This document shows positions 4,863 to 53,670 of a stretch of DNA of 54,638 nt, piece after piece. The translations under genes and the position numbers were made by a program. The notes under the pieces were generated by a model, which was not told the DNA's origin, searched no databases, and was given only the letters and a program-made list of their open reading frames with translations. Origin of the DNA: Chiloscyllium plagiosum (taxonomy: Eukaryota); contig NC_057751.1 of NCBI RefSeq assembly GCF_004010195.1, positions 16,233,267 through 16,287,904 of the forward strand, in the 5' to 3' direction. Position 1 is the stretch's first letter. The number at the start of each line of letters is the position of its first letter.

Positions 4863-6049
4863 NNNNNNNNNNNNNNNNNNNNNNNNNNNNNNNNNNNNNN
4901 NNNNNNNNNNNNNNNNNNNNNNNNNNNNNNNNNNNNNNNNNNNNNNNNNNNNNNNNNNNNNNNNNNNNNNNNNNNNNNNNNNNNNNNNNNNNNNNNNNNN
5001 NNNNNNNNNNNNNNNNNNNNNNNNNNNNNNNNNGGATGGGTATATGAATAGGAAGGGTTTGGAGGGATATGGGCCGGGTGCTGGCAGGTGGGACTAGATT
5101 GGGTTGGGATATCTGGTCAGCATGGACGGGTTGGACTGAAGGGTCTGTTTCCGTGCTGTACATCTCCATGACTCTATAGCCTTTGATACTAAATAATAAT
5201 TTTGCTCATCCTATTTGGCCCCAGAATCTTACTATTCCTCCTGAGTCTCTTGTAGATTGATGCAGTCCCCCTCCCTCAGTGGTGGAACTGTGAAACTCCT
5301 CTCTCTCTCTCTCTCTCTCCAGATTAGATTCCCTTCAGTGTGGAAACAGGCTCTTTGGCCCAACCAGTCCACACATTGGCCAAGGTGGTCTCCTCAGAAG
5401 ATCCAAGAGAGATTGGCCTGCACATGGTCCTTGTGTTTATCCCTTTCTGGGTGGTTTTTCTGGAACGATCTATCATTCCGGCCCTTCAGGGCCAATCACA
5501 CTTAAATGGTTTGGGACATTGTCAAGTCGCTTGGACGACTTGCTGCAGTTAGTTGCTTTGCGTGCGGGTTCTGTGGCTTCAGAGTTTGCCAATGTACCCA
5601 GCATCCCTTGCAGTTTGGCCATGTCAGCTCGCCGCCTGGGTTTCAGCCGCCAGTGAACAAACCAAACCCCCAGAAAGTGCCGGAGAAACTCAGGCAGCGT
5701 TCCGTGGAGAGGAGGCAAAGGTTAACGGGTCGGTGACCTTTGTGCTGATGGACTCTGTCGCTGTTTCCGTCTGTGCGGGGCTTTTCTGAGCTGGTGGGCC
5801 CTGTGACGCGTCGTCAGCCTCTTGAGAACGTGTAGCAGACCACAAGTCACACCCACAGCTCTCCCCACCCCCAAGAACTGTGGGTGGGCGGATTACATCG
5901 GGGAGTGGCAGACTGACGGCTCTCTGGGGTCGGCACTGGGTGGGACACCAGGGCCTATGGTGATCAGGCCGACCGGGAAGAGATTGAGTAGGGAATCCTA
6001 CTGAGGGTTGAGTCATTGCCATTGATGCAAATCAGGGGTGCAGCAGGAG

Positions 6050-7507: not shown

Positions 7508-8473
7508 CAAATCAGGACAGCGGCAAGAGTGCCAAATTCCAAATCAGGACACCAGCAAGAGTGTCAAATTCCAAATCAGGACACCGGCAAGAGTGACAAA
7601 TTCCAAATCAGGACATCGGCAAGAGTGACAAATTCCAAATCAGGACCAGGACATCGGCAAGAGTGACAAATTCCAAATCAGGACAGCGGCAAGAGTGACA
7701 AATTCCAAATCAGGACAGCGGCAAGAGTGCCAAATTTCAAATCAGGACAGCCGCAAGAGTGACAAATTCCAAATCAGGACACCGGCAAGAGTGCCAAATT
7801 CCAAATCAGGATACCGGCAAGAGTGCCAAATTTCAAATCAGGACAGCCGCAAGAGTGACAAATTCCAAATCAGGACAGCGGCAAGAGTGCCAAATTTCAA
7901 ATCAGGACAGCAGCAAGAGTGCCAAATTCCAAATCAGGACAGCAGCAAGAGTGACAAATTCCAAATCAGGACATCAGCAAGAGTGACAAATTCCAAATCA
8001 GGACAGTGGCAAGAGTGACAAATTCCAAATCAGGACAGCGGCAAGAGTGCCAAATTTCAAATCAGGACAGCCGCAAGAGTGACAAATTCCAAATCAGGAC
8101 ACCGGCAAGAGTGCCAAATTCCAAATCAGGATACTGGCAAGAGTGACAAATTCCAAATCAGGACAGCGGCAAGAGTGACAAATTCCAAATCAGGACAGCG
8201 GCAAGAGTGCCAAATTCCAAATCAGGATACCGGCAAGAGTGACAAATTCAAATCAGGACAGCGGCAAGAGTGCCAAACTCCAAATCATGGCAGTGGCAAG
8301 AGTGACAAATTCAAAATCAGGACAGCGGCAAGAGTGCCAAATTCCAAATCAGGACAGCAGCAAGAGTGACAAATTCCAAATCAGGACAGCGGCAAGAGTG
8401 ACAAATTCAAAATCAGGACAGTGGCAAGAGTGCCAAATTCCAAATCAGGACACCGGCAAGAGTGCCAAATTCC
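7508..8473. repeat. 32-bp minisatellite (AAATCAGGACAGCGGCAAGAGTGACAAATTCC)
   Basis: ~30 tandem units. Confidence 0.95.
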
Positions 8474-8509
8474 GAAGCAATCATATCACAGGAGATAAAA
8501 AGAAACATA

Positions 8510-12595: not shown

Positions 12596-12680
12596 GAATG
12601 AGCAGGAATCGAGGGGTAGGGAAGCAGGGGGGAGAGGGCCGTTGGTCCCACTGACTTGCTGGAGCTGGCTTGATGGGCTG

Positions 12681-13912
12681 CACTAATACCCAGGGTTCCC
12701 AGGCACTAATACCCAGGGTTCCCAAGCGTTAATACCCAGGGTTCCCAGGCACTAATACCCAGGGTTCCCAGGCGTAAATACCCAGGGTTCCCAGGCACTA
12801 ATACCCAGGGTTCCCAGGCACTAATACCCAGGGTTCACAGGCACTAATACCCAGGATTCCCAGGCGTAAATACCCAGGGTTCCCAGGCACTAATACCCAG
12901 GGTTCACAGGCACTAATACCCAGGGTTCCCAGGCACTAATGCCCAGGGTTCCCAGGCACTAATACCCAGGATTCCCAGGCGTAAATACCCAGGGTTCACA
13001 GGCACTAATACCCAGGGTTCCCAGGCACTAATGCCCAGGGTTCCCAAGCGTTAATACCCAGGGTTCACAGGCACTAATACCCAGGGTTCCCAAGCACTAA
13101 TATCCAGGGTTCCCAGGCGTTAATACCCAGGGTTCCCAGGCGTTAATACCCAGGGTTCCCAGGCACTAATACCCAGGGTTCCCAGGCGTTAATACCCAGG
13201 GTTCCCAGGCGTTATACCCAGGGTTCCCAAGCACTAATACCCAGGGTTCCCAGGCATTAATACCCAGGGTTCCCAGGCACTAATACCCAGGGTTCCCAGG
13301 TGTTAATACCCAGGGTTCCCAGGCGTTAATACCCAGGGTTCCCAGGCACTAATACCCAGGGTTCCCAGGCATTAATGCCCAGGGTTCCCAAGCGTTAATA
13401 CCCAGGATTCCCAAGCGTTAATACCCAGGGTTCCCAGGCGTTAATACCCAGGGTTCCCAGGCACTAATACCCAGGGTCCCCAGGCACTAATACCCAGGGT
13501 TCCCAGGCGTTAATACCCAGGATTCCCAAGCGTTAATACCAAGGGTTCCCAAGCGTTAATACCCAGGGTTCCCAATCGTTAATACCCAGGGTTCCCAGGC
13601 GTTAATACCCAGAGTTCCCAGGCACTAATACCCAGGGTTCCCAAGCATTAATACACAGGATTCCCAAGCGTTAATACCCAGGGTTCCCAGGCACTAATAC
13701 CCAGGGTTCCCAGACGTTAATACCCAGGGTTCCCAGGCGTTAATACCCAGGGTTCCCAGGCACTAATACCCAGGGTTCCGGGTTCCCAGGCGTTAATACC
13801 CAGGGTTCCCAGGCACTAATACCCAGGGTTCCCAAGCATTAATACACAGGATTCCCAAGCGTTAATACCCAGGGTTCCCAGGCACTAATATCCAGGGTTC
13901 TGAGGCGTTAAT
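12681..13912. repeat. 23-bp minisatellite (CACTAATACCCAGGGTTCCCAGG)
   Basis: ~53 tandem units with CACT/CGTT variants. Confidence 0.96.
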
Positions 13913-14835
13913 ACATCCTGTCCCGTGACGTATACGCTGATTGTTTTGTTATTCTGTGTGTGGTGTTGGAATAGAGCGCCTACGATCTCTGAAAAGCATT
14001 GAGGTAGCATGGAGCCAGATTCGAGGTGGGGGAAGGGGGAATGGGTTCCGTGGGTGAGGCGGTTGGCGCTTGTAATGTCGACAGGACGTTGACAGTTTGC
14101 GGCCTGTGGTTTCTGAGGCTCCACTTGCGTCATCTCAACTCTCCTCCCTCCCCTCCAGCCCTCCAAACCCCACCCCCCCTGGGGAGTGACATCGAAGGCT
14201 GAACAGCGAGCCCCTCCTGGTCAGGGCACAGCAAGATCCCACGGGCGGTGGGGGGGGGAATGGCCTGGCCAATCCATTTTGGGAGTGGGATTGAGGGAGG
14301 GTGGTGTAGAGACCCCTTCCTGTGCCCGAATGCCAAGCACGATGAACCCAACAAGGTGGCACTCTGTACTCTCAACCCTCTGCCCCCTCACCTCCACCCT
14401 CCCCCCTCCCACCCCACCAACCCGTCGGGTGATACCACTGGGCAAGCCCGTTCCTCACAGCAACAGAACCCTGTCAGTCGCGGGTCCACCCCACCCCACG
14501 CTCTCTCTCTCTCTCTCTCCCTGAGTCACGCTTGTTCTGGGGTGGGAGATGGGGGAGCGGGAAGTGGGCACGTTTCTTTTCGCTCTGTTTCCCCCCACCT
14601 CCAGGTGCCCGTTTGGACACGTGGCGTTCCGATTTCCGCAACGGAAGGTTCTGAGAGGCACTGTGAGCGAGCCCCGGGCAGGCTGGGGTGGGGGCGGGGT
14701 GGTGGGGTGGGGGAAGGGATGTGTCGGTGACGCATGGAACAGCCTGTCCCACATCCTCCAGAGAACAACATAACATCGCGGTGACATCTCAGGCCCTGAT
14801 TGAATGGAAACTGCTTCAGTAACCTCAGAGAGAGA

Positions 14836-18185: not shown

Positions 18186-19130
18186 GTTCAGGAACATTTG
18201 AGGACTCTGGGTTTAACCTCGGAGTTTAGAAGGATGAGGGGGGAGCTAATTGAAACTTACAAAACACTGGACAGAATGGATGTTGGGCAAATGTTTCCAT
18301 TGGTAGCAGAGACTAGGACCCGAGGGCACAGGCTCAGAGTAAAGGGAAGACGTTTTAGAACAGAGATAAGGAGAGAAATGTCTTCAGTCAGGGAGTGGGG
18401 AATCTATGGAATTCATTGCCACAGAAGGCTGTGGGGGCCAGGGCACTGAGTATTGATAGTTGCTTGAGTGTTGGGGGGATCAAGGGTTAAGGGGAGAAAG
18501 CTGTCCTTCACCCTCAGCCCACGAAACCATCCCCATGGGCCGAGCAAGGACCACACGTCCTCCAGATTACTTGAGGTTTGTCTCCAATATGGCCACAAGC
18601 CAAACGTGGCACTGCGCCTCTCTCAGCGAACAGCACAGTGAAATGATCGCAGGCTAATTATAGCGTCAAGTACGTCTCCTAAAACTGAATCATACGGATT
18701 TGCAATTAACTCCAGCTCCCGGCGAAATTAGCGCTTTGGGGAGATGTGCAAATTAATAAGGCCCATTTAGTACATTAATCGAGGGGACTTGACAGAGCAG
18801 ACACTAAGAAATTGTATCCAGACCCATGGAATGGGGATATAAAACACAATAGAGATGGGGTTTCCAGCGAGATCCTTGCGGCCAACCACTCCAAAGGGAA
18901 TTGGGGGGTCTACATCCATGAATCGTGTGCAAATTCAGCGGGAAACAGGGAATGTTGGCCTTTATTTCAAAGGAACAAGGGTACAAACATTCTGTTAAAC
19001 CCACATAAGGCCCTACGTCGGAGCACAGTTGGAATACCTTGAATGGTTTTGGGGCCCCGTGTCTAAGGGAAGATAGACTGACCATCGGAGGCACTCTACA
19101 GAAGGTTCACTCGGCTGAAGCTGCCGTGGC

Positions 19131-20180
19131 CAATGTAGGCGGCAATACAAATGCAGCACGCTGTGCCCAATGTAGGCGGCAATACAAATGCAGCACACTG
19201 TGCCCAATGTAGGCGGCAATACTAATGGAGCATGCTGTGCCCAATGTAGGTGGCAATACAAATGCAGCACACTGTGCCCAATGTAGGCGGCAATACAAAT
19301 GCAGCATGCTGTGTCCAATGTAGGTGGCAATACAAATGCAGCATGCTGTGCCCAATGTAGGTGGCAATACAAATGCAGCACACTGTGCCCAATGTAGGTG
19401 GCAATACAAATGCAGCACGCTGTGCCCAATGTAGGTGGCAATACGAATGCAGCACACTGTGCCCAATGTAGGCGACAATAGAAATGCAGCACGCTGTGCC
19501 CAATGTAGGTGGCAATACGAATGCAGCACACTGTGCCCAATGTAGGCGGCAATACAAATGCAGCACGCTGTGCCCAATGTAGGTGGCAATACGAATGCAG
19601 CACACTGTGACCAATGTAGGCGGCAATACAAATGCAGCACACTGTGCCCAATGTATGCGGCAATACTAATGCAGCACACTGTGCCCAATGTAGGTGGCAA
19701 TACAAATGCAGCACACTGTGCCCAATGTAGGTGGCAATACAAATGCAGCACCCTGTGCCCAATGTAGGTGGCAATACAAATGCAGCACGATGTGCCCAAT
19801 GTAGGCGGCAATACAAATGCAGCACACTGTGCCCAATGTAGGCGGCGATACAAATGCAGCACACTGTGCCCAATGTAGGTGGCAATACAAATGCAGCACG
19901 CTGTGCCCAATGTAGGCGGCAATACAAATGCAGCACACTGTGCCCAATGTAGGCGGCGATACAAATGCAGCACCCTGTGCCCAATGTAGGTGGCAATACA
20001 AATGCAGCACGATGTGCCCAATGTAGGCGGCAATACAAATGCAGCACACTGTGCCCAATGTAGGCGGCGATACAAATGCAGCACACTGTGCCCAATGTAG
20101 GTGGCAATACAAATGCAGCACACTGTTACCAGTGTAGGTGGCAATACAAATGCAGCACACTGTGCCCAATGTATACAAAT
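19131..20180. repeat. 37-bp minisatellite (CAATGTAGGCGGCAATACAAATGCAGCACACTGTGCC)
   Basis: ~28 units; explains the long spurious Cys/His-rich ORFs with 37-aa periodicity. Confidence 0.96.
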
Positions 20181-26563: not shown

Positions 26564-26602
<39 letters not shown>

Positions 26603-26624
26603 TGTGTGTGTGTGTGTGTGTTCA

Positions 26625-27283: not shown

Positions 27284-29659
27284 TATGCTCCAATACAGGA
27301 GTATGGTGAAAAATGCATAATGTCCCCGCCACTCATGTACAGGAGCACAGTCAAAAATGTATAATGTCGCCACACATGACACCAGCGGCAAGGTACCCAG
27401 TTACAAATAGAGTCATAGAGATGTACAGCACGGAAACAGACCCTTCGGTCCAACCCGTCCATGCTGACCCAGATATCCCAACCCAATCGTATATTAGTCC
27501 CCTTCCAATTTAGGTGCAATCCGTCCTTCTGNNNNNNNNNNNNNNNNNNNNNNNNNNNNNNNNNNNNNNNNNNNNNNNNNNNNNNNNNNNNNNNNNNNNN
27601 NNNNNNNNNNNNNNNNNNNNNNNNNNNNNNNNNNNNNNNNNNNNNNNNNNNNNNNNNNNNNNNNNNNNNNNNNNNNNNNNNNNNNNNNNNNNNNNNNNNN
27701 NNNNNNNNNNNNNNNNNNNNNNNNNNNNNNNNNNNNNNNNNNNNNNNNNNNNNNNNNNNNNNNNNNNNNNNNNNNNNNNNNNNNNNNNNNNNNNNNNNNN
27801 NNNNNNNNNNNNNNNNNNNNNNNNNNNNNNNNNNNNNNNNNNNNNNNNNNNNNNNNNNNNNNNNNNNNNNNNNNNNNNNNNNNNNNNNNNNNNNNNNNNN
27901 NNNNNNNNNNNNNNNNNNNNNNNNNNNNNNNNNNNNNNNNNNNNNNNNNNNNNNNNNNNNNNNNNNNNNNNNNNNNNNNNNNNNNNNNNNNNNNNNNNNN
28001 NNNNNNNNNNNNNNNNNNNNNNNNNNNNNNNACGCAGCCATTGTAAATTATGCGGTCAATTCTTGCAAATTTACTTTGCGATACAAGGACACTTGGGTAA
28101 TGGCCAAAATGGGCTACGCATTCTCTCTAATGTGGCTAGCAATTTCTGACTGAAATTTTGGAGACAGTCATGTTGAAGATATTAATCTTCTAATTAATAT
28201 CCCATGGCTCAGTGATAAGCGAGATGAGAAGTTAACATTTAGTCATTTCATGTACATTTTAAATCTTTCTTGATGGTTTCCTGTGTGTTGACACTGTACC
28301 AGTTGCAGTAAAACATGTACTGTCCCAATAATGCACTGAATTATTGTGCTGTACTGTTGTTTTCATGGCTGTGAGACTATATTGACATAACTAGATATTT
28401 TGATTAAACTTTAACTACACTTTAATAGGACATTCTAACAAACTTTATTCTGAGAAGTGAGTCAGGCTGTCCGTGAATAGCTGAATTTCCATTAATGAAG
28501 ACTGAATAAAAACAGCAATATCCAAATGTACAATATAACCCTAGCAGTCAAACAGTTATCCTTGTTCCAGTTTATCTGCCCTGTTCCCATATCCTCATAT
28601 TCCCATTTTCCTTCAATCACCGGCCTATCTCATGTTTTCACATTAACTCCAGGGTACATTCCACTGTCGCACGAGCCTCAGTGTTAACAGGTCCCTGGAT
28701 CGGGCGTTATTCAAATGCATTCAAATATTCACATCCAAAGTGAACAAAGGTTGACCCAGAACAAAGCCAACATCTCGCTAATGTCGTTGCTACCAATGAA
28801 CAACGCAGAGAAAGTGAGGCCTGCGGATCAGAGTCGAGAGTGTGGGCGCTGGAAAAGCACAGCAGGTCAGGCAGCAGCCGAGGGAGCAGGACCGTTTCGG
28901 GCGTCAAGCCCTTCAGCAGGAACGAGAACTCGAAACGTCGACTCTCCTGCTTCTCGGACGCTGCCTGACCTGCTGCGCATTTTCCAGCAGCCCACACTCT
29001 CGGCACCAGTGCGGCACACCCCCTCTCTCGGAGTGGTTCTGCATCTGACCGTTGTAAATTAAACAGAAAATTGTTTCCAAAAATTCTACCCTTGCACATC
29101 GCTGTGTAGTTTCTTCATAATGTAGTTGCAGTCTCGAAAAATGCCAAATAATTCTTTTGTCGGAGAGTGACCACGAAAAAAAAGGGTGCTGGACATGGTT
29201 TGCAAAATGTTACAACATATACCAAATACTATGTGCAGATAAAACCCTTAACAGTATTTTCATTGAACAATGCTTTGGAAGAAAATGATTTCTTTACAAG
29301 AGACAGTAAACCTCCTGATTTTGCGAATTTATTTTTATATATACACATATGAATGTTCCTGTTCTCTTACACTGCTCACATTACTTTTGGAGTGCTTTCA
29401 AATACAGGGACTAAATTATCTGGAAAATTTGAGACAATTCTGCTATTGAAGTACCAAAACGCGCCTGGCATTTCTTACCCATCTCTGAGCGGGTGTAAGA
29501 CAGCACCCTAGCCCAGGACGGGCTGGGGTTAATGGGCGCACTAAATGGTGCCCGTTAAACTGGGCACCCCCGATTTGAGCAGCCCGAAATAAAGGCGGAG
29601 ACTGTGGGCCAGATGTCAGGCAGGGTACGCCTGGGATGTGTACAATAGAATCCCAACAG

Positions 29660-30360
29660 CCATGCGGCCCATCGAGTCCAGACCAACCCTTCGAAGATCA
29701 TCCCACCCAAACCAATCCCTGTAACCCTGCATTTCTCATGGCTAACCCACCCTAACCTGCATATCCCTGAACACTATGGGGCAATTTAGCATGGCCAATC
29801 CACCCTAACCTGCACATCCCTGAGCACTATGGGTAATTTAGCATGGCCAATCCACCCTAACCTGCACATCCCCGGACACTATGGGTAATTTTAGCATGGC
29901 CAATCCTCCCTAACCTGCACATCCCTGAGCACTATGGGTAATTTAGCATGGCCAATCCACCCTAACCTGCACATCCCNNNNNNNNNNNNNNNNNNNNNNN
30001 NNNNNNNNNNNNNNNNNNNNNNNNNNNNNNNNNNNNNNNNNNNNNNNNNNNNNNNNNNNNNNNNNNNNNNNNNNNNNNNNNNNNNNNNNNNNNNNNNNNN
30101 NNNNNNNNNNNNNNNNNNNNNNNNNNNNNNNNNNNNNNNNNNNNNNNNNNNNNNNNNNNNNNNNNNNNNNNNNNNNNNNNNNNNNNNNNNNNNNNNNNNN
30201 NNNNNNNNNNNNNNNNNNNNNNNNNNNNNNNNNNNNNNNNNNNNNNNNNNNNNNNNGGAGAAGGTGCAAACTCCCCACAGGCAGACAGTCGCCCAAGGGT
30301 GGAATCGAACCTGAGTCCCTGGTGCCGTGCGGCAGCAGTGCAAACCACTGAGTCACCGTG
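29660..30360 (-). mobile_element. HE1-like SINE with 52-bp array spanning a gap (second copy 33908-34412)
   Basis: Tail at ~29660, units to 29977, head 30257-30360. Confidence 0.8.
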
Positions 30361-31815
30361 CAAAGTGCTGATCAATGCAGACATGTGTAAAGATTGGTTC
30401 CAGTTCTATCCTTCATCAAGTGGCTTTGAGAACAGCAGATGACTTACTTGTCTTGTGCACTTCGGCCACCTGGGTGAAATACTGCTCCCTCCACTGGATC
30501 CAACTTTGGCACCAATCCTCAGGAAGGATGTGACGGCACTGGTAGGGGGCACAGAAAAGATCATCCCAGAAGGCCCCGGGGCTGGGAAAGGTCAGAATAC
30601 AAGGACGAGAAGGTCGAGGGGTGATTTGATTACAAATGTCCAAAATGATCAGGATATCGAGGCGTGCTGTAGGTAGATAGTTCCTTGAAAGTGATCTCAC
30701 AGAGAGGGTGGTGAAGAAGGCCTTTATTGGTCAGCGCACTACCAATGGGAGTTGGGAGGTCATGCTGCATAAGTACAGGACATTGGCTCGGCCATTTTTG
30801 GAGCACTGTGTGCAATTCTGGTCTCGCTGATCCAGAAAGGATTATATTAACCTAGAAGGAGTGCAGAAACGATTTACTTGCAGGCTACCTAGACTGGAAA
30901 GCTTGAGTTATAAGGAAAGGCTGGGCCTATTTTCCCCGCAGCGTTGTAAACTGAAGGGTCTATAAAATGATGAGAGGCGCAGAGAAGGGAGATCACTGAC
31001 AGCTTTTCCCCAGGGTAGGGGAGTCAAAAAATAGAGGGGAATAGGTTTCAGGTGAGAGATACAAAAGAGGCTAGAGGGGCAATTTTATTTCACACGGAGG
31101 GTGGGGAGTGTCTGGAACAGGCTGCCAGAGATAGAGAAACATTTGGACAGGTACATGGACAGGATAGGGACAGAGGGATATGGACCAAACCCAGGCGAAT
31201 GGGACTGGACGTATTGTGAAAACTGGGCAGCATGGAGAAGTTGGGCTGAAGGGTCTGTTTCCATACTGTAGATCGCACTGGCTCTGAGCTGAGGGAATCC
31301 GTCGGTGGGCACCGTGAGCTGCTGGGATCTGGAACTGGCCAATTCCATCGGGACTTGGGTAAGTGCGGCGGAGTGGGGAGGAACATTCGCAGGGATTTGG
31401 GGAAGGAACAGTTTGAGGTTACGGTGGAGGGCAGTTCTTGGCAGCAAGCAGGTGTACAAAGGGCAGAAGTGCCTCCTTTGTGCCCCACTGTGATGCCACC
31501 CAGCTGAGAAGATGCCAACAGACAGCCTGTGCATGTAGTGGTGTTGTGCAAGGCTCTGGGAGGGGGGGGGGGGGGCGGGCGGACATGCTCTGATATTGGA
31601 TCCCGGGATCAGTGTTGTGTCTCTGGACCGGGAGCTGGGAATTTCTGGGGATTCGGCTCAGTGAGAATTTCAAACAGTGACAGTTTTTGCCTGGGAGGGC
31701 CGCTAGCTGGATTGGGGGAGGAACATTCGGGACCCCTGGCCAGTAGCTCGAGCTGGGGGAACCTGGTTCAAATCCCCACATCGCCCCCGCCTTTGTCTTT
31801 GTACAGAAACAGGCA

Positions 31816-32081
31816 TTAAAAGGAAGTGACGGTGGGGAGAGTGTCCGTGAGAGCTCCGACTGAGTCAGATCCTTTCTCCGATGAGCTTTCTGTCTCTCCG
31901 GGTGCTGTATGTTCCTCTGTCCAAGTTGATCCATTACATCGTGTCGTTGAGTTGGCTTTCTTGTCTTCAGCAGATCCCTCGTAGCCAAAGTTATGAAAGC
32001 AACCATTTAGATACGTCTTATCGGGCCGGGATTCCTTAACAGTCTGCTGTTGCAGCAATGGGGCACTTTTGATGCCTGGTC
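31816..32081 (-). CDS. NPC1L1: NPC1L1 terminal exon, distal undeleted copy
   Basis: Same acceptor; G-P start as in GPDVN of orthologues; YLNGCF resembles the YVNxxF motif; open to ...LPTVTSF*. Confidence 0.75.
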
Positions 32082-32144
32082 CTGGAAACATAGAGACAGT
32101 TTGTTGTTGGAGCGTGAAGTGTTTTGGTCTCCACCCAACTGCAT

Positions 32145-33575
32145 GAGTTTAATTTCGGATAAATGTGAGGTGCTGCACTGTGGAAAGGCAAATCAAGGCA
32201 AGACTTATACACTTAACAGTAGCTCAGTGGGCGTGTTGCTGAACAAGGAGACCTTGGAGTGCAGCTTCATAGCTCCTTGAAAGTGGAGTCGCAGCTAGAT
32301 AGGATAGTGAAGGCAGCGTTTGGTATGCTTTCCTTTATTGGTCAGAGTATTGAGTACAGGAGTTGGGAGGTCATGTTGCAGCTGGACAGGACATAGGTTA
32401 GGCCACTTTTGAAATATTATGTGCAATTCTGCTCTGGATGGATGTTGTGAAACTTGGAAGGGTTCAGCAAAGATTGACAAGGATGTTGCCAGGGTTGGAG
32501 GGTTTGAGCTACAGGGAGAGGCTGAACAGGCTGGGGCTGTTTTCCCTGGAGCGTCGGAGGCTGAGGAGTGACCTTATAGAGGTTTACAAAATTATGAGGG
32601 GCCATAGGTAGGGTAAATAGACTAGGTATTTTCCCTGAGGTGGGGGAGTCTAGAATTATAGGGACATGGGGTGAGAGGGGAAAGATATAAAAGAGACCTA
32701 AGGGGCAACTTTTTCATGCAGAGGGTGGTACGTGTATGGAACGAGCTGCCAGAGGAAGTGGTGGAGGCTGGTACAATTACAACATTTAAGAGGCATTTGG
32801 ATGGGTATATGAATAGGAAGGGTTTGGAGGGATATGGGCCGGCCGCTGGCAGGTGGGACTAGATTGGGTTGGGATGTCTGGGTCGGCATGGACGGGTTGG
32901 ACCGAAGGGTCTGTTTCCGTGCTGTGCATCTCTCTGACTGAGTCCAGCACTGACCTTAGAGTGCAGGTTCATAGCTCCTTGAAAGTGGAGTCGCAGGTAG
33001 ATAGGATAGTGAAGGCAGCGTTTGGTATGCTTTCCTTTATTGGTCAGAGTACTGAGTACAGGAGTTGGGAGGTCATGTTGCGGCTGTACAGGACATTTCA
33101 ATTTAATGTTTTCAATTTAACGTTACAGCTGTAGAAAACTTGAGTCAGGTCACATTTGGAATATTGCGTCCAGCTCTGATCGCCACACTACCAGAAGGAT
33201 CTGGATGTTTTGGAGAGGGTGCAGAGACCAGTCTGGAGTTATGAGGAAAGGTTGGTTAAATTTGGACTGTTTTCACTGAAAAGACGGAGGTTGAGGGGCG
33301 ACCTGATAAAAGGTCGACACAATTATTGATAGAGAGGGGCTTCTTGTCAGGGTGGAAAGGTCAACCACTAGAGGGCACAGGTTCAACGTGAGAGGGGGAC
33401 AGCTTAGGGGAAAAGTGCAGGGAAGCTTTTCACCCAAAGGGAAACGTGGAGGGGGTGGAAGCAGGCACATTAGCGACGCTTAAGGTGTATCGTGATAGGG
33501 GCAGAGAGTCACACAGCATGGACGGGTTGGACCGAGGGGCCTGTTTCCGTGCTGTACATCTCTATAACTCTATGA
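32145..33575 (+). mobile_element. CR1/HER1-like LINE fragments (tandem)
   Basis: Same motifs, interrupted; a second fragment restarts at ~32953. Confidence 0.88.
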
Positions 33576-35660
33576 CATCTATAGGGTCAGCCCTCAACCT
33601 CCAGTGAACAAAGTCCCAGCCTCTCTTTATGATTAAACCCTCCATTCCCGGCAACATCCCGGGAAATCGCTTCTGAACTCTCTTCAGCTTGACAATATCC
33701 TTCCTATAACAGACCATTCAGACACATGAGCAAGAGGTGAACAGTGGGATGGAAACTGCGTATGGGAAATAAGTGGTGGGTCTCAGTGAGGATTAGGGAG
33801 CAGTGCAGGAAGCCGTAGGGCCTGTTCCAGTGCTGTTATTAAGTTGTGGTCAAAAAGTGTGGTGCTGGGAAAGCACAGCAAGTCAGGCAGCAGCTGACAA
33901 GCAGGAGCTGCACATCCCTGAGCACTATGGGTAATTTAGCATGGCCAATTCACCCTAAGCTGCACATCCCTGAGCACTATGGGTAATTTAGCATGGCCAA
34001 TTCACCCTAAGCTGCACATCCCTGAGCACTATGGGTAATTTAGCATGGCCAATCCACCCTAACCTGCACATCCCTGAGCACTATGGGTAATTTAGCATGG
34101 CCAATTCACCCTAAGCTGCACATCCCTGAGCACTATGGGTAATTTAGCATGGTCAATTCACCCTAACTTGCACATCCCTGGTCACCACGGGGAAATCGAA
34201 CATGTCCAATCCACCCTAACATGCACATCCCTGGTCACCATGGGGAAATCGAACATGTCCAATCCACCCTAACATGCATGTCTTTGGATCAAATCCACGC
34301 AGACACGGGGAGAAGGTGCAAACTCCCCACAGGCAGACAGTCGCCCAAGGGTGGAATCGAACCTGAGTCCCTGGTGCCGTGAGGCAGCAGTGCAAACCAC
34401 TGAGTCACCGTGCAAAGTGCTGATCAATGCAGACATGTGTAAAGATTGGTTCCAGTTCTATCCTTCATCAAGTGGCTTTGAGAACAGCAGATGACTTACT
34501 TGTCTTGTGCACTTCGGCCACCTGGGTGAAATACTGCTCCCTCCACTGGATCCAACTTTGGCACCAATCCTCAGGAAGGATGTGACGGCACTGGTAGGGG
34601 GCACAGAAAAGATCATCCCAGAAGGCCCCGGGGCTGGGAAAGGTCAGAATACAAGGACGAGAAGGTCGAGGGGTGATTTGATTACAAATGTCCAAAATGA
34701 TCAGGATATCGAGGCGTGCTGCAGGTAGATAGTTCCTTGAAAGTGATCTCACAGAGAGGGTGGTGAAGAAGGCCTTTATTGGTCAGCGCCCTGCCAATGG
34801 GAGTTGGGAGGTCATGCTGCATAAGTACAGGACATTGGCTCGGCCATTTTTGGAGCACTGTGTGCAATTCTGGTCTCGCTGATCCAGAAAGGATTATATT
34901 AACCTAGAAGGAGTGCAGAAACGATTTACTTGCAGGCTACCTAGACTGGAAAGCTTGAGTTATAAGGAAAGGCTGGGCCTATTTTCCCCGCAGCGTTGTA
35001 AACTGAAGGGTCTATAAAATGATGAGAGGCGCAGAGAAGGGAGATCACTGACAGCTTTTCCCCAGGGTAGGGGAGTCAAAAAATAGAGGGGAATAGGTTT
35101 CAGGTGAGAGATACAAAAGAGGCTAGAGGGGCAATTTTATTTCACACGGAGGGTGGGGAGTGTCTGGGACAGGCTGCCAGAGATAGAGAAACATTTGGAC
35201 AGGTACATGGACAGGATAGGGACAGAGGGATATGGACCAAACCCAGGCGAATGGGACTGGACGTATTGTGAAAACTGGGCAGCATGGAGAAGTTGGGCTG
35301 AAGGGTCTGTTTCCATACTGTAGATCGCACTGGCTCTGAGCTGAGGGAATCCGTCGGTGGGCACCGTGAGCTGCTGGGATCTGGAACTGGCCAATTCCAT
35401 CGGGACTTGGGTAAGTGCGGCGGAGTGGGGAGGAACATTCGCAGGGATTTGGGGAAGGAACAGTTTGAGGTTACGGTGGAGGGCAGTTCTTGGCAGCAAG
35501 CAGGTGTACAAAGGGCAGAAGTGCCTCCTTTGTGCCCCACTGTGATGCCACCCAGCTGAGAAGATGCCAACAGACAGCCTGTGCATGTAGTGGTGTTGTG
35601 CAAGGCTCTGGGAGGGGGGGGGGGGGGCGGGCGGACATGCTCTGATATTGGATCCCGGGA

Positions 35661-35908
35661 TCAGTGTTGTGTCTCTGGACCGGGAGCTGGGAATTTCTGG
35701 GGATTCGGCTCAGTGAGAATTTCAAACAGTGACAGTTTTTGCCTGGGAGGGCCGCTAGCTGGATTGGGTGTCGTTGAGTTGGCTTTCTTGTCTTCAGCAG
35801 ATCCCTCGTAGCCAAAGTTATGAAAGCAACCATTTAGATACGTCTTATCGGGCCGGGATTCCTTAACAGTCTGCTGTTGCAGCAATGGGGCACTTTTGAT
35901 GCCTGGTC
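35661..35908 (-). CDS. NPC1L1: NPC1L1 terminal exon, proximal duplicate (225-bp deletion, altered C-terminus)
   Basis: TTTCCAG acceptor, phase 1; GPGIKSAPLLQQQ...YLNGCF...NSTT then PNPASG...ETQH* read from former 3'UTR sequence. Confidence 0.6.
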
Positions 35909-35969
35909 CTGGAAACATAGAGACAGTTTGTTGTTGGAGCGTGAAGTGTTTTGGTCTCCACCCAACTGC

Positions 35970-36785
35970 ATGAGTTTAATTTCGGATAAATGTGAGGTGC
36001 TGCACTGTGGAAAGGCAAATCAAGGCGAGACTTATACACTTAATAGTAGCTCAGTGGGAGTGTTGCTGAACAAGGAGACCTTGGAGTGCAGCTTCATAGC
36101 TCCTTGAAAGTGGAATCGCAGGTAGATAGGATAGTGAAGGCAGCGTTTGGTATGCTTTCCTTTATTGGTCAGAGTATTGAGTACAGGAGTTGGGAGGTCA
36201 TGTTGCGGCTGTACAGGACATTGGTGAGGCCGCTGTTGGAATATTGCGTGCAGTTCTGGTCTCCCTGCTGGAGGCAGGACTTTGTGAAACTTGAGAGGAT
36301 TCGGAAAAGATTTACAAGGATGTTGCCAGGGTTGGAGGGTTTGACCAAAAGGGAGAGGTCGAATAGGCTGGGGCTGTTTTCCCTGGAGCGTCGGAGGCTG
36401 AGGGGTGACCTTATAGAGGTTTATAAAATTATGAGGAGCCTGAATACGGTAAATAGACAAGGTCTTTTCCCTGGGATGGGGGAGTCCAGAACTAGAGGTC
36501 ATAGGTTTATGGCGAGAGGGCAAAGATATAAAAGAAACAGGAAGGGCAACTTTTTCCTGCACAGGGTGGTACGTGTATGGAATGAGCTGCCAGAGGAAGT
36601 GGTGAAGGCTGGTACAATTGCAACATTTAAGAGGCATTTGGATGGGCATATGAATAGGAAGGGTTTGGAGGGATATGGGCCGGGTGCTGGCAGGTGGGAC
36701 TAGATTGGGTTGGGAATATCTGGGTCAGCATGGACAAGTTGGACCGAGGGGCCTGTTTCCGTGCTGTACATCTCTATAACTCTAT
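35970..36785 (+). mobile_element. CR1/HER1-like LINE 3' fragment (RT C-terminus open 36086-36703)
   Basis: LYRTLVRPLLEYCVQFWSP...[20 protein letters not shown]...TRGH...FF..RVVRVWNELP, followed by 3'UTR. Confidence 0.92.
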
Positions 36786-37059
36786 GACATCTATAGGGTC
36801 AGCCCTCAACCTCCAGTGAACAAAGTCCCAGCCTCTCTTTATGATTAAACCCTCCATTCCCGGCAACATCCCGGGAAATCGCTTCTGAACTCTCTTCAGC
36901 TTGACAATATCCTTCCTATAACAGAGCATTCAGACACATGAGCAAGAGGTGAACAGTGGGATGGAAATTGCGTATGGGAAATAAGTGGTGGGTCTCAGTG
37001 AGGATTAGGAAGCAGTGCAGGAAGCCGTAGGGCCTGTTTCAGTGCTGTTATTAAATTGT

Positions 37060-37395
37060 GGTCAAAAAGTGTGGTGCTGGGAAAGCACAGCAAGTCAGGC
37101 AGCATCTGACAAGCAGGAGGGCTGACATTTCGAGCATACACTCTTCATCAAGTACATGGGGGAGGCCCGAGGGGGCTGAGAGGTAAATGGAATTGGGGGT
37201 GGAGCTTGGGGGAAGGTAGCTGGAAATGTGATAGGTGGATGAAGGTGAGGAGGGGCGACGGTGATAGGTCAGAGAGGATTGTGGGGAGGATAGTTGGGAG
37301 GGAAGATGGACAGGTCAAGAGGGCAGTGGAGGGTCGGATCTGGGATAAGGTCGGGGAGGGGAGAGGATGAAACTGGTGACATTGACGTTGACCCA
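37060..37395 (-). mobile_element. Penelope-like (second family) 3'/pLTR fragment
   Basis: Reverse-complement similarity to 54450-54638 and to 3110-3235; degenerate TTGATGA...GAAA core. Confidence 0.6.
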
Positions 37396-37611: not shown

Positions 37612-37774
37612 CGAAGTAGCTGAGGAGGACGGGCAGGAAGATCAGGCCGTGGACCAGACCCAGTAAGGTGATCACCAGGTTGAGGCGGAAGAAGAAGACT
37701 TGGATGAGCTGGGACTGAGCGAAATGCAGGACGATGATTCCGGGAAGGTTGGTCATCGCCACGCCCGCAAAGAC
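37612..37774 (-). CDS. NPC1L1: NPC1L1 penultimate exon
   Basis: VFAGVAMTNLPGIIVLHFAQSQLIQVFFFRLNLVITLLGLVHGLIFLPVLLSYF; 163 nt; donor GTGAGT; phase 1. Confidence 0.96.
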
Positions 37775-37869
37775 CTGTCAGGGGGTAAACGGACACCATT
37801 GGAGGGGGGGAGAGAGCGAGCTCGGTCAGGGAAAGGAGCGCCGCCCCTGGCTGTCTCCGCTGGCAGGGG

Positions 37870-38578
37870 GCCCGGCAGGTCATCCTCTATCCCAGAATCC
37901 CTGGCGGGTCATCCTCTATCCCAGATTTCTTATCAAGCTGATGGTTCAGCTCTCGGCCGGCGGGTCATCCCGAATCCCAGAATTCCCAGTGGGTTATCCT
38001 CAGTCCCAGAATTCCCGATGAGTTGACTGTTCAGCTCACGGCTGGCAGGTAATCCCCAGTCCCAGAATTCCCGCCGAGTTGACTGTTCAGCTCACGGCTG
38101 GCGGGTCATCCCCAGTCCCAGAATTCCCAGTGAGTTGACTGTTCAGCTCACGGCTGGCGGGTCATCCCCAGTCCCAGAATTCCCGGCGAGCTGAGTCTGT
38201 TCAGCTCATGGCCGGCGGGTCATCCCCAGTCCCAGAATTCCCGCCGAGTTGACTGTTCAGCTCACGGCCGGCAGGTCATCCCCAATCCCAGAATTCCCGG
38301 CGAGTTGACTGTTCAGCTCACGGCTGGCGGGTCATCCCCAATCCCAGCATTCCCAGCGAGCTGAGTCTGTTCAGCTCTCACACCACACCAGGTTATAGTC
38401 CAACAGGTTTATTTGGAAGCACTAGCTTTCGGAGTGACGCTCCTACATCCGGGAGCTCGTGGGGCAGGATCAGGTCATCCCCAATCCCAGAATTCCCGGC
38501 GAGTTGACTGTTCAGCTCACGGCTGGCGGGTCATCCCCAATCCCAGCATTCCCAGCGAGCTGAGTCTGTTCAGCTCTC
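37870..38578. repeat. 56-bp minisatellite, left part
   Basis: Unit GTTCAGCTCACGGCTGGCGGGTCATCCCCAGTCCCAGAATTCCCGGCGAGTTGACT. Confidence 0.93.
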
Positions 38579-40338
38579 ACACCACACCAGGTTGTAGTCC
38601 AACAGGTTTATTTGGAAGCACTAGCTTTCGGAGTGATGCTCCTTCATCCGGGAGCTCGTGGGGCAGGATCATATGACACAGACTTAATAGCAAAAGGTTT
38701 ACAGTGTCATTCAACTGAAACGAGATATTGAACAAACCTAGCTTGCTGTGAAATCTTTCATCTCTTAGAATGGGTTGCAGGTTTCAGTTCTTTAATATGT
38801 AAATCCCAGAACTACTTTTAAGTCACGGTCTCAAGATAACTTCAGGCTTTATAAGAAAAGGTGCCATCTCAGCTCAGTGCATTAAAGGTGGGAGGTTAGA
38901 GTCTGTCTGTATCCCAGTCTTGAGTCAGACTGGTTCCACTTCCAAAGTGGAATTTACAAAATAGTCCATGGAATGACTGTCTGCAGATTATGCATTTTTT
39001 TGGAGCAAAATAGAATGTATCTGCAAATATAGTTCTGCAAAGACAAATTCGCCCCATAGACACACGGCCCATTTGTGTGTGTGTGCGCATGAGAGAGAGA
39101 GAAGGAGAGAGAGCGAGAGAGTGTTTGCATCTGAGTGTGAGTGTGATGGAGTATAAGCCTGTGAGAGGATGTGTGCGTGGGTGTGGGGGCTGTATGTGGA
39201 GGCTTAGGGAAGGTCTTGGTGAGGTGCTCACCCCCCGTCGATAATGTGTTGCAGGCAGCGAAGAACGAGGTGTCATTTCTCGGCTCCCGGGAAGTACTGG
39301 ACAACAAAGGTTACCCTGCCGGTTGCAACCAGTGTCTATCTCCTGAGGAGGTCATTACGGTTTCTCGCTGTGGCCCATTCGTGCTGGCGATCAATGAGTT
39401 GAGCGTCATACCCTGTCCTTCTAAGGGCATGGTGAGGAACACTTCAGCAGTCAGGGACATTCGGCCTCGGATCTTCGGGTGACCACCCTCCCAGGCGGAC
39501 TTCGGGACAGGGAACAACGTAGAGGGGCCGAGCAGAGGCTGATGGCCAAGTTTGGTAACCATGGGGATGGCCTCAACCGGGACCTTGGGGTCATGTCACA
39601 CTACAGGTGACCCCACTGCCCTGTACACTCTATCACACACACACACAATCTAACATACACACAGACTCACGCAGACTCTCTTTCATACACATGCTCTCTC
39701 TTATACACACACACATACACCGCACCCCCCCACAACACTCTCACCAATGCACACATCCTCTCACAGGTTTCTGCTACATCCCACACACACACACTTGACC
39801 AAGCTTTCACACACGCAATCACACACTCACACTCACGTGCAAACACGCACACACTCACACTCTCTCTCTATGTCTCTCGATCTCTCAAGCACACACACAC
39901 ACAAACAAGTCTATGGGGTGAATTTGTCTTTGCAGAATTATATTTGCAGATACATCTTATTTTGCTCAAAAATGCACAATCTGCAGGCAGTCAATCCATG
40001 GAATATTTTGTAAATTCCACTTTGGAAGTGGAACCAGTCTGACTCAAGATTGGGATACAGACAGACTCTTGATCTCACACCTTTAATGCATTGTCTGAGC
40101 TGAGATGTCGCCTTTTCTTATAAAACTTTAAGTTAGCTTGAGAATGTGACTTGAAAAAAGTTCTAGGACTTACATATTAATGAACTGCGCCTTATGATCA
40201 TATACTCCACAACCACCTGATGAAGGGGCGTCGCTCCGAAAGCTAGTGCTTCCAAATAAACCTGTTGGACTCTAACCTGGTGTTGTGTGATTTTTAATCT
40301 TGTCCACCCCAGTCCAACACCAGCTCCTCCACATCATG
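38578..40338 (+). mobile_element. Penelope-like retroelement remnant with inverted terminal copy
   Basis: 39435-39610 encodes EHFSSQGHSASDLRV...RRGAEQRLMAKFG...GLNRDLGVMSHYR* (PLE GIY-YIG C-terminus). 38578-39070 is the reverse complement of ~39900-40290. Hammerhead-like core at 40217. Confidence 0.8.
40214..40248 (+). ncRNA. Minimal hammerhead ribozyme motif (PLE-type)
   Basis: CAC-CTGATGA-A-GGGGC-gtc-GCTCC-GAAA-GC-TA-GTG: core boxes, stem II, stem I (CAC/GTG), palindromic short stem III. Confidence 0.6.
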
Positions 40339-41074: not shown

Positions 41075-41775
41075 AGCTGCCTCACGGCGCCAGGAACTGA
41101 GTTCGATTCCAGCCTCGGGCTACAGTGTGTGTGTGGAGTTTGCACATTCTCCCCATCTCTGCGTGGGTTTCCTCCTGCAGTCCAAGGATGTGCTGGTTAG
41201 GGTGGATTGGCCATGCTAAATTACCCATAGTGCTCAGGGATGTGCAGGTTTGGGTGGATTGGCCATGCTAAATTACCCATAGTGCTCAGGGATGTGCAGG
41301 TTAGGGTGCGTTGGCCGTGTTAAATTACCCATAGTGCTCAGGGATGTGCAGGTTTGGGTGGATTGGCCATGGGAAATTACACACCATGCCCAGGGTTGTA
41401 TAGGTCAGGTGGGTTAACCATAGGAAATGTGGAATTACAGGGATAGAGTACCATATTATAGAAAAGACGTCAACACATTGGAGAGAGAGCGTCGAAGCGA
41501 GTTACCCCATAGTGTTTAGGGATGTGCAGGTCAGGGTGGATTGGCCGTGCTAAATTACCCATAGTGCCCAGGGATGTGCAGGTCAGGGTGGATTGGCCGT
41601 GCTAAATTACCCATAGTGCCCAGGGATGTGCAGGTCAGGGTGGATTGTCCATGCTAAATTACCCATAGTGCTCAGGGATGTGCAGGTTAGTGTGCTTTGG
41701 CCGTGGGAAATTACACACCATGCCCAGGGTTGTATAGGTCAGGTGGGTTAACCATGGGAAATGTGGAATTACAGG
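41075..41775 (+). mobile_element. HE1-like SINE with 52-bp arrays and local duplication
   Basis: B box, 52-bp units, duplicated block. Confidence 0.8.
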
Positions 41776-42206
41776 GATAGAGTACCATATTATAGAAAAG
41801 ACGTCAACACATTGGAGAGAGAGCGTCGAAGCGAGTTACAAGAACGGGTTCCGGGGACGGGAAACCTCGGGGATGAGGAGTGATGGAAGAAGTTGGGAAT
41901 GTTCTCCTCGGAGAGGAGAGGGAGATCCGATAGAGGTTCTCGGAATCGGGCTGGACAGAGTCGAGAGGGAGAAGCTGGTGTGCAGGGAGGTTTTGTTACA
42001 TGAGCATCTCTTTTAAAAAGTAAGAGTGATCTTATTTTCCCAGCAGCTCTGAACCCTGCCTGATTCAGTGTGGGAAAGGTGAACCCCTGGGGTGGAGGGG
42101 AGATGGGACAGGGCAGAATAGCAGGAGCCGATGGGTCGAACAGTCTGAGTGGCGAGAAGCAGAGGGAGAGCCTGGTCTCACACACAGTGCACTGTGAGTG
42201 CCTTAC

Positions 42207-52684: not shown

Positions 52685-53670
52685 TAGAGTCGTACAATAC
52701 AGAAACAGACCCTTCGGTTGCACCCAGTCCACAAATTCTAAACTAAACTAGTCCCACCCCTGCCTACTCCTGGCCCATATCCCTCCAAACCTTTCCTTGT
52801 TCATGTACTTATCCAAATATCTTTTAACCAATGTAAACGTACCCACATCCACCAGTTCCTCAGGAAATTCATTCCACATGGGAACTACGCTCTGTCTTTT
52901 TGAAATCTCTCTTCTCTCACCGCCCCCCCCCCGCCTCATCTTGAGATCCCCCTTCCGAGGGAAAAGACATCTTCCATTAACCCCATCGATATCCCTGGTG
53001 ATTTTATCAACCTCGGTAAGGTGACCCCTCAACCTCCGACTTGAGAGAGAAGTCCCGGCCTCTCCTCATTACTCAAACCATCCATTCCCAGGTAACACCC
53101 TGCGAAATCTCTTCTGAGCCCTCTCCAGTTTAATAATACCCTCCAGTTTAATAATACAGGGCGACCAGACCTGGGCACAGTGCACCAGACGAGGCCTCAC
53201 CAACATCCTGTACAACCTCAATAGGACGTCCCGACTCCCGCACTCAAAGGCAAATGTGCCCAAATGCTTTCTTAACCCCCCCACCGTCTACACCCTGCGA
53301 AATCTCTTCTGAGCCCTCTCCAGTTTAATAATACCCTTCCTATAACAGGGCGACCAGAACAGGGCACAGTGCACCAGACGAGGCCTCACCAACGTCCTGT
53401 ACAACCTCAATAGGACCTCCCGACTCCCGCACTCAAAGGCAAATGTGCCCAAATGCTTTCTTAACCCCCCCACCGTCTCCATGGGACGCAAACTGCAGAG
53501 AATGATGTACCTGGACCCTCTAGCTCCCTCTGCTCTCAGGACCTTACCTTTTAAATTGTTGAAGCCCCTAACCCCCGCTCCCCGCCCCCCTGCCCCCAGT
53601 TTGTTTTCCCAAAATGCAACACCTCGCATTTATCCGGATTGAACTCTGTCTGCCATTTTTCCAATTCCTT
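52685..53670 (-). mobile_element. Degenerate CR1-like LINE with an internal ~195-bp tandem duplication
   Basis: LLRLYR.LVRPRLVHCA..WSP present twice (53095-53290, 53290-53480). Confidence 0.82.

Follow-up and report, generated by a model that had tools for sequence, protein, structure and literature searches.

A probable false tandem duplication of the NPC1L1 last exon in the genome assembly of Chiloscyllium plagiosum

The end of the NPC1L1 gene has been analysed in a stretch of 54,638 nucleotides of Chiloscyllium plagiosum (NCBI RefSeq assembly GCF_004010195.1, contig NC_057751.1, forward-strand positions 16,233,267 to 16,287,904), here called the window, whose first letter is position 1. 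In the window the last exon of the gene occurs twice, once in full (copy A) and once in a shortened form (copy B), and the extra, shortened exon is probably (about 0.8) a false tandem duplication that arose during assembly and not a real feature of the genome. As part of this same reading, and held as firmly, copy B would be a local, partly chimeric reconstruction of the second haplotype.

The two copies of the gene end

The gene is an NPC1L1 orthologue, recognised by tblastn, which gave twelve segments from 11 exons in order on the minus strand, two of them for the last exon and one for each of the others. A search of solved structures with the related protein P0002 (described below) as query gave 23 matches, the top 6 of which are NPC1L1, ahead of NPC1. 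The coordinates of the duplication are based on a BLAST search of the window against itself and on a global alignment of copy A with copy B, and its parts are as follows.

30257 to 33907, minus strand: copy A (distal), with the end of the last intron, the full last exon and the 3' untranslated region (3'UTR); other samples have this form
33908 to 37119, minus strand: copy B (proximal), with a tandem array, the 3'UTR, the shortened last exon and a divergent stretch resembling a long interspersed nuclear element (LINE); a probable redundant reconstruction
31716 to 31940, minus strand: 225-bp segment present only in A, without counterpart in B; 41 codons, the stop and the start of the 3'UTR
32380 to 32883, plus strand: LINE-like stretch, in which A and B are 11.7% apart
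32884 to 33513, no strand: second A-only segment, 630 bp, flanked by two similar copies of a LINE tail
33907 to 33908, no strand: junction of A and B, without N and with 2-bp microhomology, at which a dispersed repeat runs into the interior of a 52-bp array

The similarity between the two copies is far above chance level, with 30257-31716 matching 34309-35768 (1,460 bp, 99.66%), 31941-32939 matching 35768-36781 (91.0%) and 33514-33907 matching 36726-37119 (394 bp, 98.0%) in the self-comparison. In the global alignment the three non-repeat blocks differ by 5/1,459, 5/439 and 8/394 substitutions (0.34%, 1.1% and 2.0%), and the LINE-like stretch at 32380-32883 by 59/504 substitutions and 5 small indels. 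The 225-bp loss in B sits at 35767/35768, where the microhomology amounts to 1 bp, and the 630-bp loss at 36725/36726. The names LINE and, below, SINE (short interspersed nuclear element) are labels that we assume for the repeats of the window; a Pfam scan of the open reading frame of the LINE-like stretch, of the penultimate exon and of both tails returned no match for any of the four.

An earlier account made from the letters alone (the sequence-only reading) had described a tandem duplication with 225 bp missing from the proximal copy and a gap-free junction, and the self-comparison and alignment bear it out in its coordinates and in all three respects. Its statement that unique sequence differs only by scattered single-nucleotide polymorphisms (SNPs) is right for the non-repeat blocks and does not extend to the LINE-like stretch, and it left out the gap edge at which copy A begins, the array in which copy B starts, the 630-bp loss and the 11.7% divergence. 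An origin by homology-mediated duplication (non-allelic homologous recombination) was rejected, since the junction shares just 2 bp.

The exons and the tail motif concerned are the following.

37612 to 37777, minus strand: penultimate NPC1L1 exon, present once, which encodes the last transmembrane region; its donor is at 37612 and its upstream limit is approximate
31816 to 32081, minus strand: coding part of the last exon in copy A; 87-residue tail that ends in LPTVTSF before a TAA stop and is the same as the C-terminal 87 amino acids of P0003
35661 to 35908, minus strand: conceptual last exon of copy B; 81-residue tail ending in PGPETQH, stop TGA, containing the deletion junction 35767/35768
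31996 to 32013 (35823 to 35840 in B), minus strand: YLNGCF, a pattern match to YVNxxF, an endocytic motif in mammalian NPC1L1; in both tails

An intact acceptor and a frame open to a stop are found in both copies, and the 76 bases around each acceptor (32081 in A, 35908 in B) do not differ between them; donor, acceptors and acceptor identity are as the sequence-only reading had given them. It was also correct that the deletion removes 41 codons and the stop from B, whose frame then runs into the former 3'UTR. The first 46 residues are common to the two tails, leaving 41 that are found only in A and 35 only in B. The human NPC1L1 tail works via A1272LAL, Q1277KR (LIMA1) and YVNxxF (NUMB) (PMC10575946). 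The human ALAL/QKR stretch aligns with APLLQQQ of the shark protein, in an alignment that reaches residue 1284 of human NPC1L1, and YLNGCF (tail residues 23-28) is a pattern fit beyond the aligned part; both lie inside the 46 residues that A and B share.

Breakpoints, arrays and gaps

Two features lie to the left of copy A.

29978 to 30256, no strand: gap of 279 N; copy A begins at the very next base
29737 to 29977, plus strand: 52-bp tandem array of 4.6 units, closing the contig to the left of the gap and sharing its unit with the array that opens copy B

Copy B opens inside the 52-bp tandem array at 33906-34272. There are nine such arrays in the window, amounting to 4.9% of its non-N bases, yet they adjoin 3/6 gaps (3/12 gap edges) and are therefore places where contigs of the assembly end. 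The array-bordered gaps are at 4863, 15649 and 29978, and the arrays apparently lie within a repeat that we take to be SINE-like. The right breakpoint at 33907 (equivalent to 37119) falls in a dispersed repeat with two further copies in the window at 81-83% identity. The segments 28835-29002 and 26583-26621 are self-complementary, the former consisting of two inverted copies of this same repeat.

Tails of related sharks

The protein relatives form a cluster of seven members from three species, six of which reach the C-terminus. The A tail is found in 6/6 of these, with 32-41 of the 41 A-only residues identical (41/41 in C. plagiosum P0003, 35-36 in C. punctatum and 32 in H. ocellatum), and the B tail in 0/6 (2-3 of 35 B-only residues identical), in a comparison within the cluster that did not include a dedicated search with the B-only tail. 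Over the whole A tail, identity is 87/87 for P0003, 77/87 for C. punctatum and 71/87 for H. ocellatum. The single C. plagiosum model in the cluster (P0003, XP_043537064.1) is of the A type, and the bamboo and epaulette shark NPC1L1 proteins (P0003, P0001 with accession XP_060712447.1, and P0004, P0006 and P0007) have the same exon order, none with a B tail. A search with the A tail among longer proteins gave one match out of 36 candidates, the NPC1L1 of the epaulette shark. The presence of the A tail in all six relatives and of the B tail in none shows that A is ancestral and B a derived or erroneous form. A literature search on NPC1L1, shark and isoform returned no shark NPC1L1 paper among the matches listed.

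One member of the cluster, P0002 (C. punctatum, XP_072410391.1), is a separate model of 146 amino acids that is built from the final two exons of NPC1L1, complete tail included, and differs from the full-length C. punctatum model in 2/146 residues. Its boundaries are unlike those of the duplication in the window, where the penultimate exon is single.

Evidence from public sequencing runs

Twenty-four public runs were found and four were aligned (X1, X2, X11 and X12), one per study from four studies. None of the 24 offers raw DNA reads; two (X22 and X23) are raw single-cell RNA. All four consist of assembled contigs, and the target was 30257-33960, that is, copy A together with the A/B junction. 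For the four runs, 15 of 357 joints, 32 of 169,743 pieces and 24 of 1,137 loose ends were listed; the samples are not known to include the animal that was assembled.

In all four runs the 225-bp segment is spanned, with both edges, by a single contig (X1 31531-32187, X12 31619-32022, X2 30332-32082 and X11 31562-32082), and no joint that skips 31716-31940 is among the 15 of 357 listed. In X2, X11 and X12 the contig match ends at the acceptor, at 32082, and 3,904, 388 and 222 further letters follow. The X2 contig (5,651 nt) runs from 32082 to 30332 with 3,904 upstream letters, against an expected 3,844 coding nt upstream; this length fits the coding sequence plus a short leader, and the contig is therefore read as a spliced transcript with the A tail. 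The contigs of all three runs are apparently spliced A-tail transcripts, a reading based on the contig break at the acceptor and, in X2, on the number of letters upstream; none of the three runs is catalogued as RNA. All four runs, the DNA-like run included, have contigs that end at 30332-30335, so this was rejected as a poly(A) site and is taken as a repeat edge.

The remaining A-only features are also found elsewhere. The 630-bp segment is covered by contigs of X1 and X12, and X1 has a 77-base piece identical to the A version of the LINE-like stretch. No piece bridging 33907/33908 is among the 32 of 169,743 listed. In X1 the mean contig depth is 8.13 for sequence shared by A and B and 6.29 for A-only sequence, a ratio of 1.29 and not 2; this comes from five shared and two A-only contigs, with one mixed contig (record 4) omitted, and contig depth is not copy number. 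It speaks weakly against there being two copies in the X1 sample.

At position 30670 the B letter occurs in X1, on a locus with the structure of A, and the A letter in X2, X11 and X12. This is an ordinary segregating SNP, so that at least one difference between A and B is allelic, the rows listed giving no letters at 30738, 30741 or 31116. Contigs of the non-repeat part differ from A by 0-2.1% (X2 21/~1,750, X12 15/908, X11 11/521), and since the A/B differences of 0.34-2.0% fall within this range, B is at the allelic level outside the repeats. Diversity between animals is high at the last exon and 3'UTR of NPC1L1, with other samples differing from the window by up to ~2% over 30335-32187; several of the differences are clustered in the coding tail at 32011-32040.

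A probable false tandem duplication and its inferred origin

In the favoured reading, the real locus would have one last exon, in the A form, spliced from 37612 to 32081 to give the ancestral 87-residue tail. How the assembly may have come to contain a second one we infer as follows. The segment between the 52-bp array and the dispersed repeat, both of which would be ends of short-read contigs, would have been placed in the scaffold twice, copy A being the faithful version. The non-repeat parts of B, which stand at allelic distance from A, probably come from the other haplotype. Within the LINE-like stretch B probably strayed onto other copies of this element and skipped from one LINE tail to the other, losing 630 bp, as a local extension read by read would do in an element of high copy number; its extension would then have stalled in the 52-bp array, after which it would have been abutted to A without Ns. 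As to the 225-bp deletion, it may be a genuine rare allele that the assembled animal carries, or it may stem from a chimeric read.

Hallmarks of false duplication given by Ko et al. (2022; PMC9516828) are haploid depth, gaps between the copies, discordant pairs and single-copy k-mers, and some false copies are joined there by unsupported gap-filled sequence (PMC9516828). The present case resembles the false heterotype and homotype duplications described there in that a near-identical copy lies beside the original on one scaffold, near a gap, with an exon doubled, and in the allelic-level divergence of the non-repeat blocks (0.34-2.0%). It is unlike them in that the N gap borders A on its outer side instead of separating the copies, and unlike the heterotype form in that the 11.7% LINE-like stretch of B is too divergent for a plain allele. 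Membership in this class is probable.

Several observations weigh against this reading. The junction at 33907/33908 carries no N, where a gap between the copies is the usual hallmark, and a 225-bp deletion with 1 bp of microhomology is not what a repeat jump produces. The LINE-like stretch of B could not be explained as a family consensus: among the 64 sites at which A and B differ, compared with 18 other LINE-like copies in the window, 34 favoured B and 25 A, with 5 ties, so the simplest mark of a gap filler is lacking and the stretch would have to derive from particular other copies of the element. The evidence from the runs comes from other samples and from the joints and pieces listed, and contigs drop rare variants. 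P0002 may be another false copy, or the gene end may truly duplicate.

Alternative explanations

B might be a real second allele with a rare 225-bp coding deletion and a replacement tail of 35 residues, only its tandem layout being false; this possibility, a sub-case compatible with a false tandem duplication and judged independently of it, is doubtful but deserves to be taken seriously. A deletion with 1 bp of microhomology needs a template, the non-repeat blocks diverge at the allelic level with a segregating SNP at 30670, and the frame of B is open to a stop with the 46 motif-bearing residues kept. Set against these points, the deletion was seen in 0/4 other samples, as judged from unbroken contigs and the joints listed, and the 11.7% divergence and the repeat-bounded loss of 630 bp are hard to fit to one ordinary allele; given these last two features, B is at least partly unreliable. 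Two haplotypes in tandem had been the second of the two options of the sequence-only reading, and it is the better supported one, with the corrections that B appears partly chimeric and that its deletion is unseen in the four samples, which leaves a common indel polymorphism undemonstrated. It is more doubtful still that the duplication is genuine but private or rare, a microhomology-type event between the dispersed repeat and the 52-bp array, with B having since acquired deletions and a converted LINE stretch. A gap-free junction with 2 bp of microhomology would suit such an event, repeats are so abundant in the window that breakpoints within them are not rare by chance, and P0002 of C. punctatum repeats the last two exons, albeit with other boundaries. 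However, the 0.34% divergence of the 3'UTR is too young for two deletions and an 11.7% local divergence without extra events, the left end coincides with a gap edge, and there is neither a bridging contig among the pieces listed nor a doubling of depth in X1.

The other option, that of two alternative cytoplasmic tails, found no support. Alternative last exons that arise by tandem exon duplication are two homologous terminal exons, each with its own acceptor, behind one donor. The two NPC1L1 copies have this arrangement, both acceptors being intact and both frames reaching a stop, but the acceptors are letter-identical and not diverged, and nothing here points to splicing or conservation of the second copy, or to its occurrence in other animals. 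The B form is not among the contigs listed, which cannot prove absence. That all C. plagiosum should use two functional tails with different trafficking is highly improbable: transcript-like contigs of three runs retain the A-only segment, the B tail is absent from the 6 C-terminus-bearing relatives, the sole C. plagiosum model included, the B-only residues are former 3'UTR with 2-3 of 35 matching those relatives, and the ALAL/QKR-aligned stretch and YLNGCF are in the shared part. Were B real in those animals, it would precede A, with an acceptor identical to that of A and a 3'UTR copy to itself, and many transcripts with B tails would be expected. It is unlikely that B, whether an allele or a tandem copy, belongs to the DNA of some bamboo sharks and is transcribed in them, in which case the last 41 residues would be replaced by 35 from the former 3'UTR and the endocytic motif would be kept, in a naturally tail-swapped cholesterol transporter.

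Implications

If the duplication is false, as favoured here, it calls only for caution in annotation: reads that fall in the initial 141 bases of the last exon have two mapping positions, and gene prediction could yield a spurious tail. Were B real, it would be a natural variant for probing the role of the 41 distal residues in the tail of the shark protein, with an effect expected to be modest because the characterised trafficking motifs precede the break.

Other repeats of the window

The intron that precedes the penultimate exon holds, at 38272-38671, two head-to-tail copies of 199 bp with 3 mismatches, within a 56-bp array; this pair may likewise be a small duplicate made in assembly, or else a genuine recent one. 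Tandem Repeats Finder reports two-copy blocks at 41186-41839 and 53095-53478, with periods of 334 bp and 189 bp respectively and 93% identity. Downstream of the gene there are long minisatellites at 7508-8479, 12680-13914 and 19126-20173, with units of 32, 23 and 37 bp in ~30, 53 and 28 copies.

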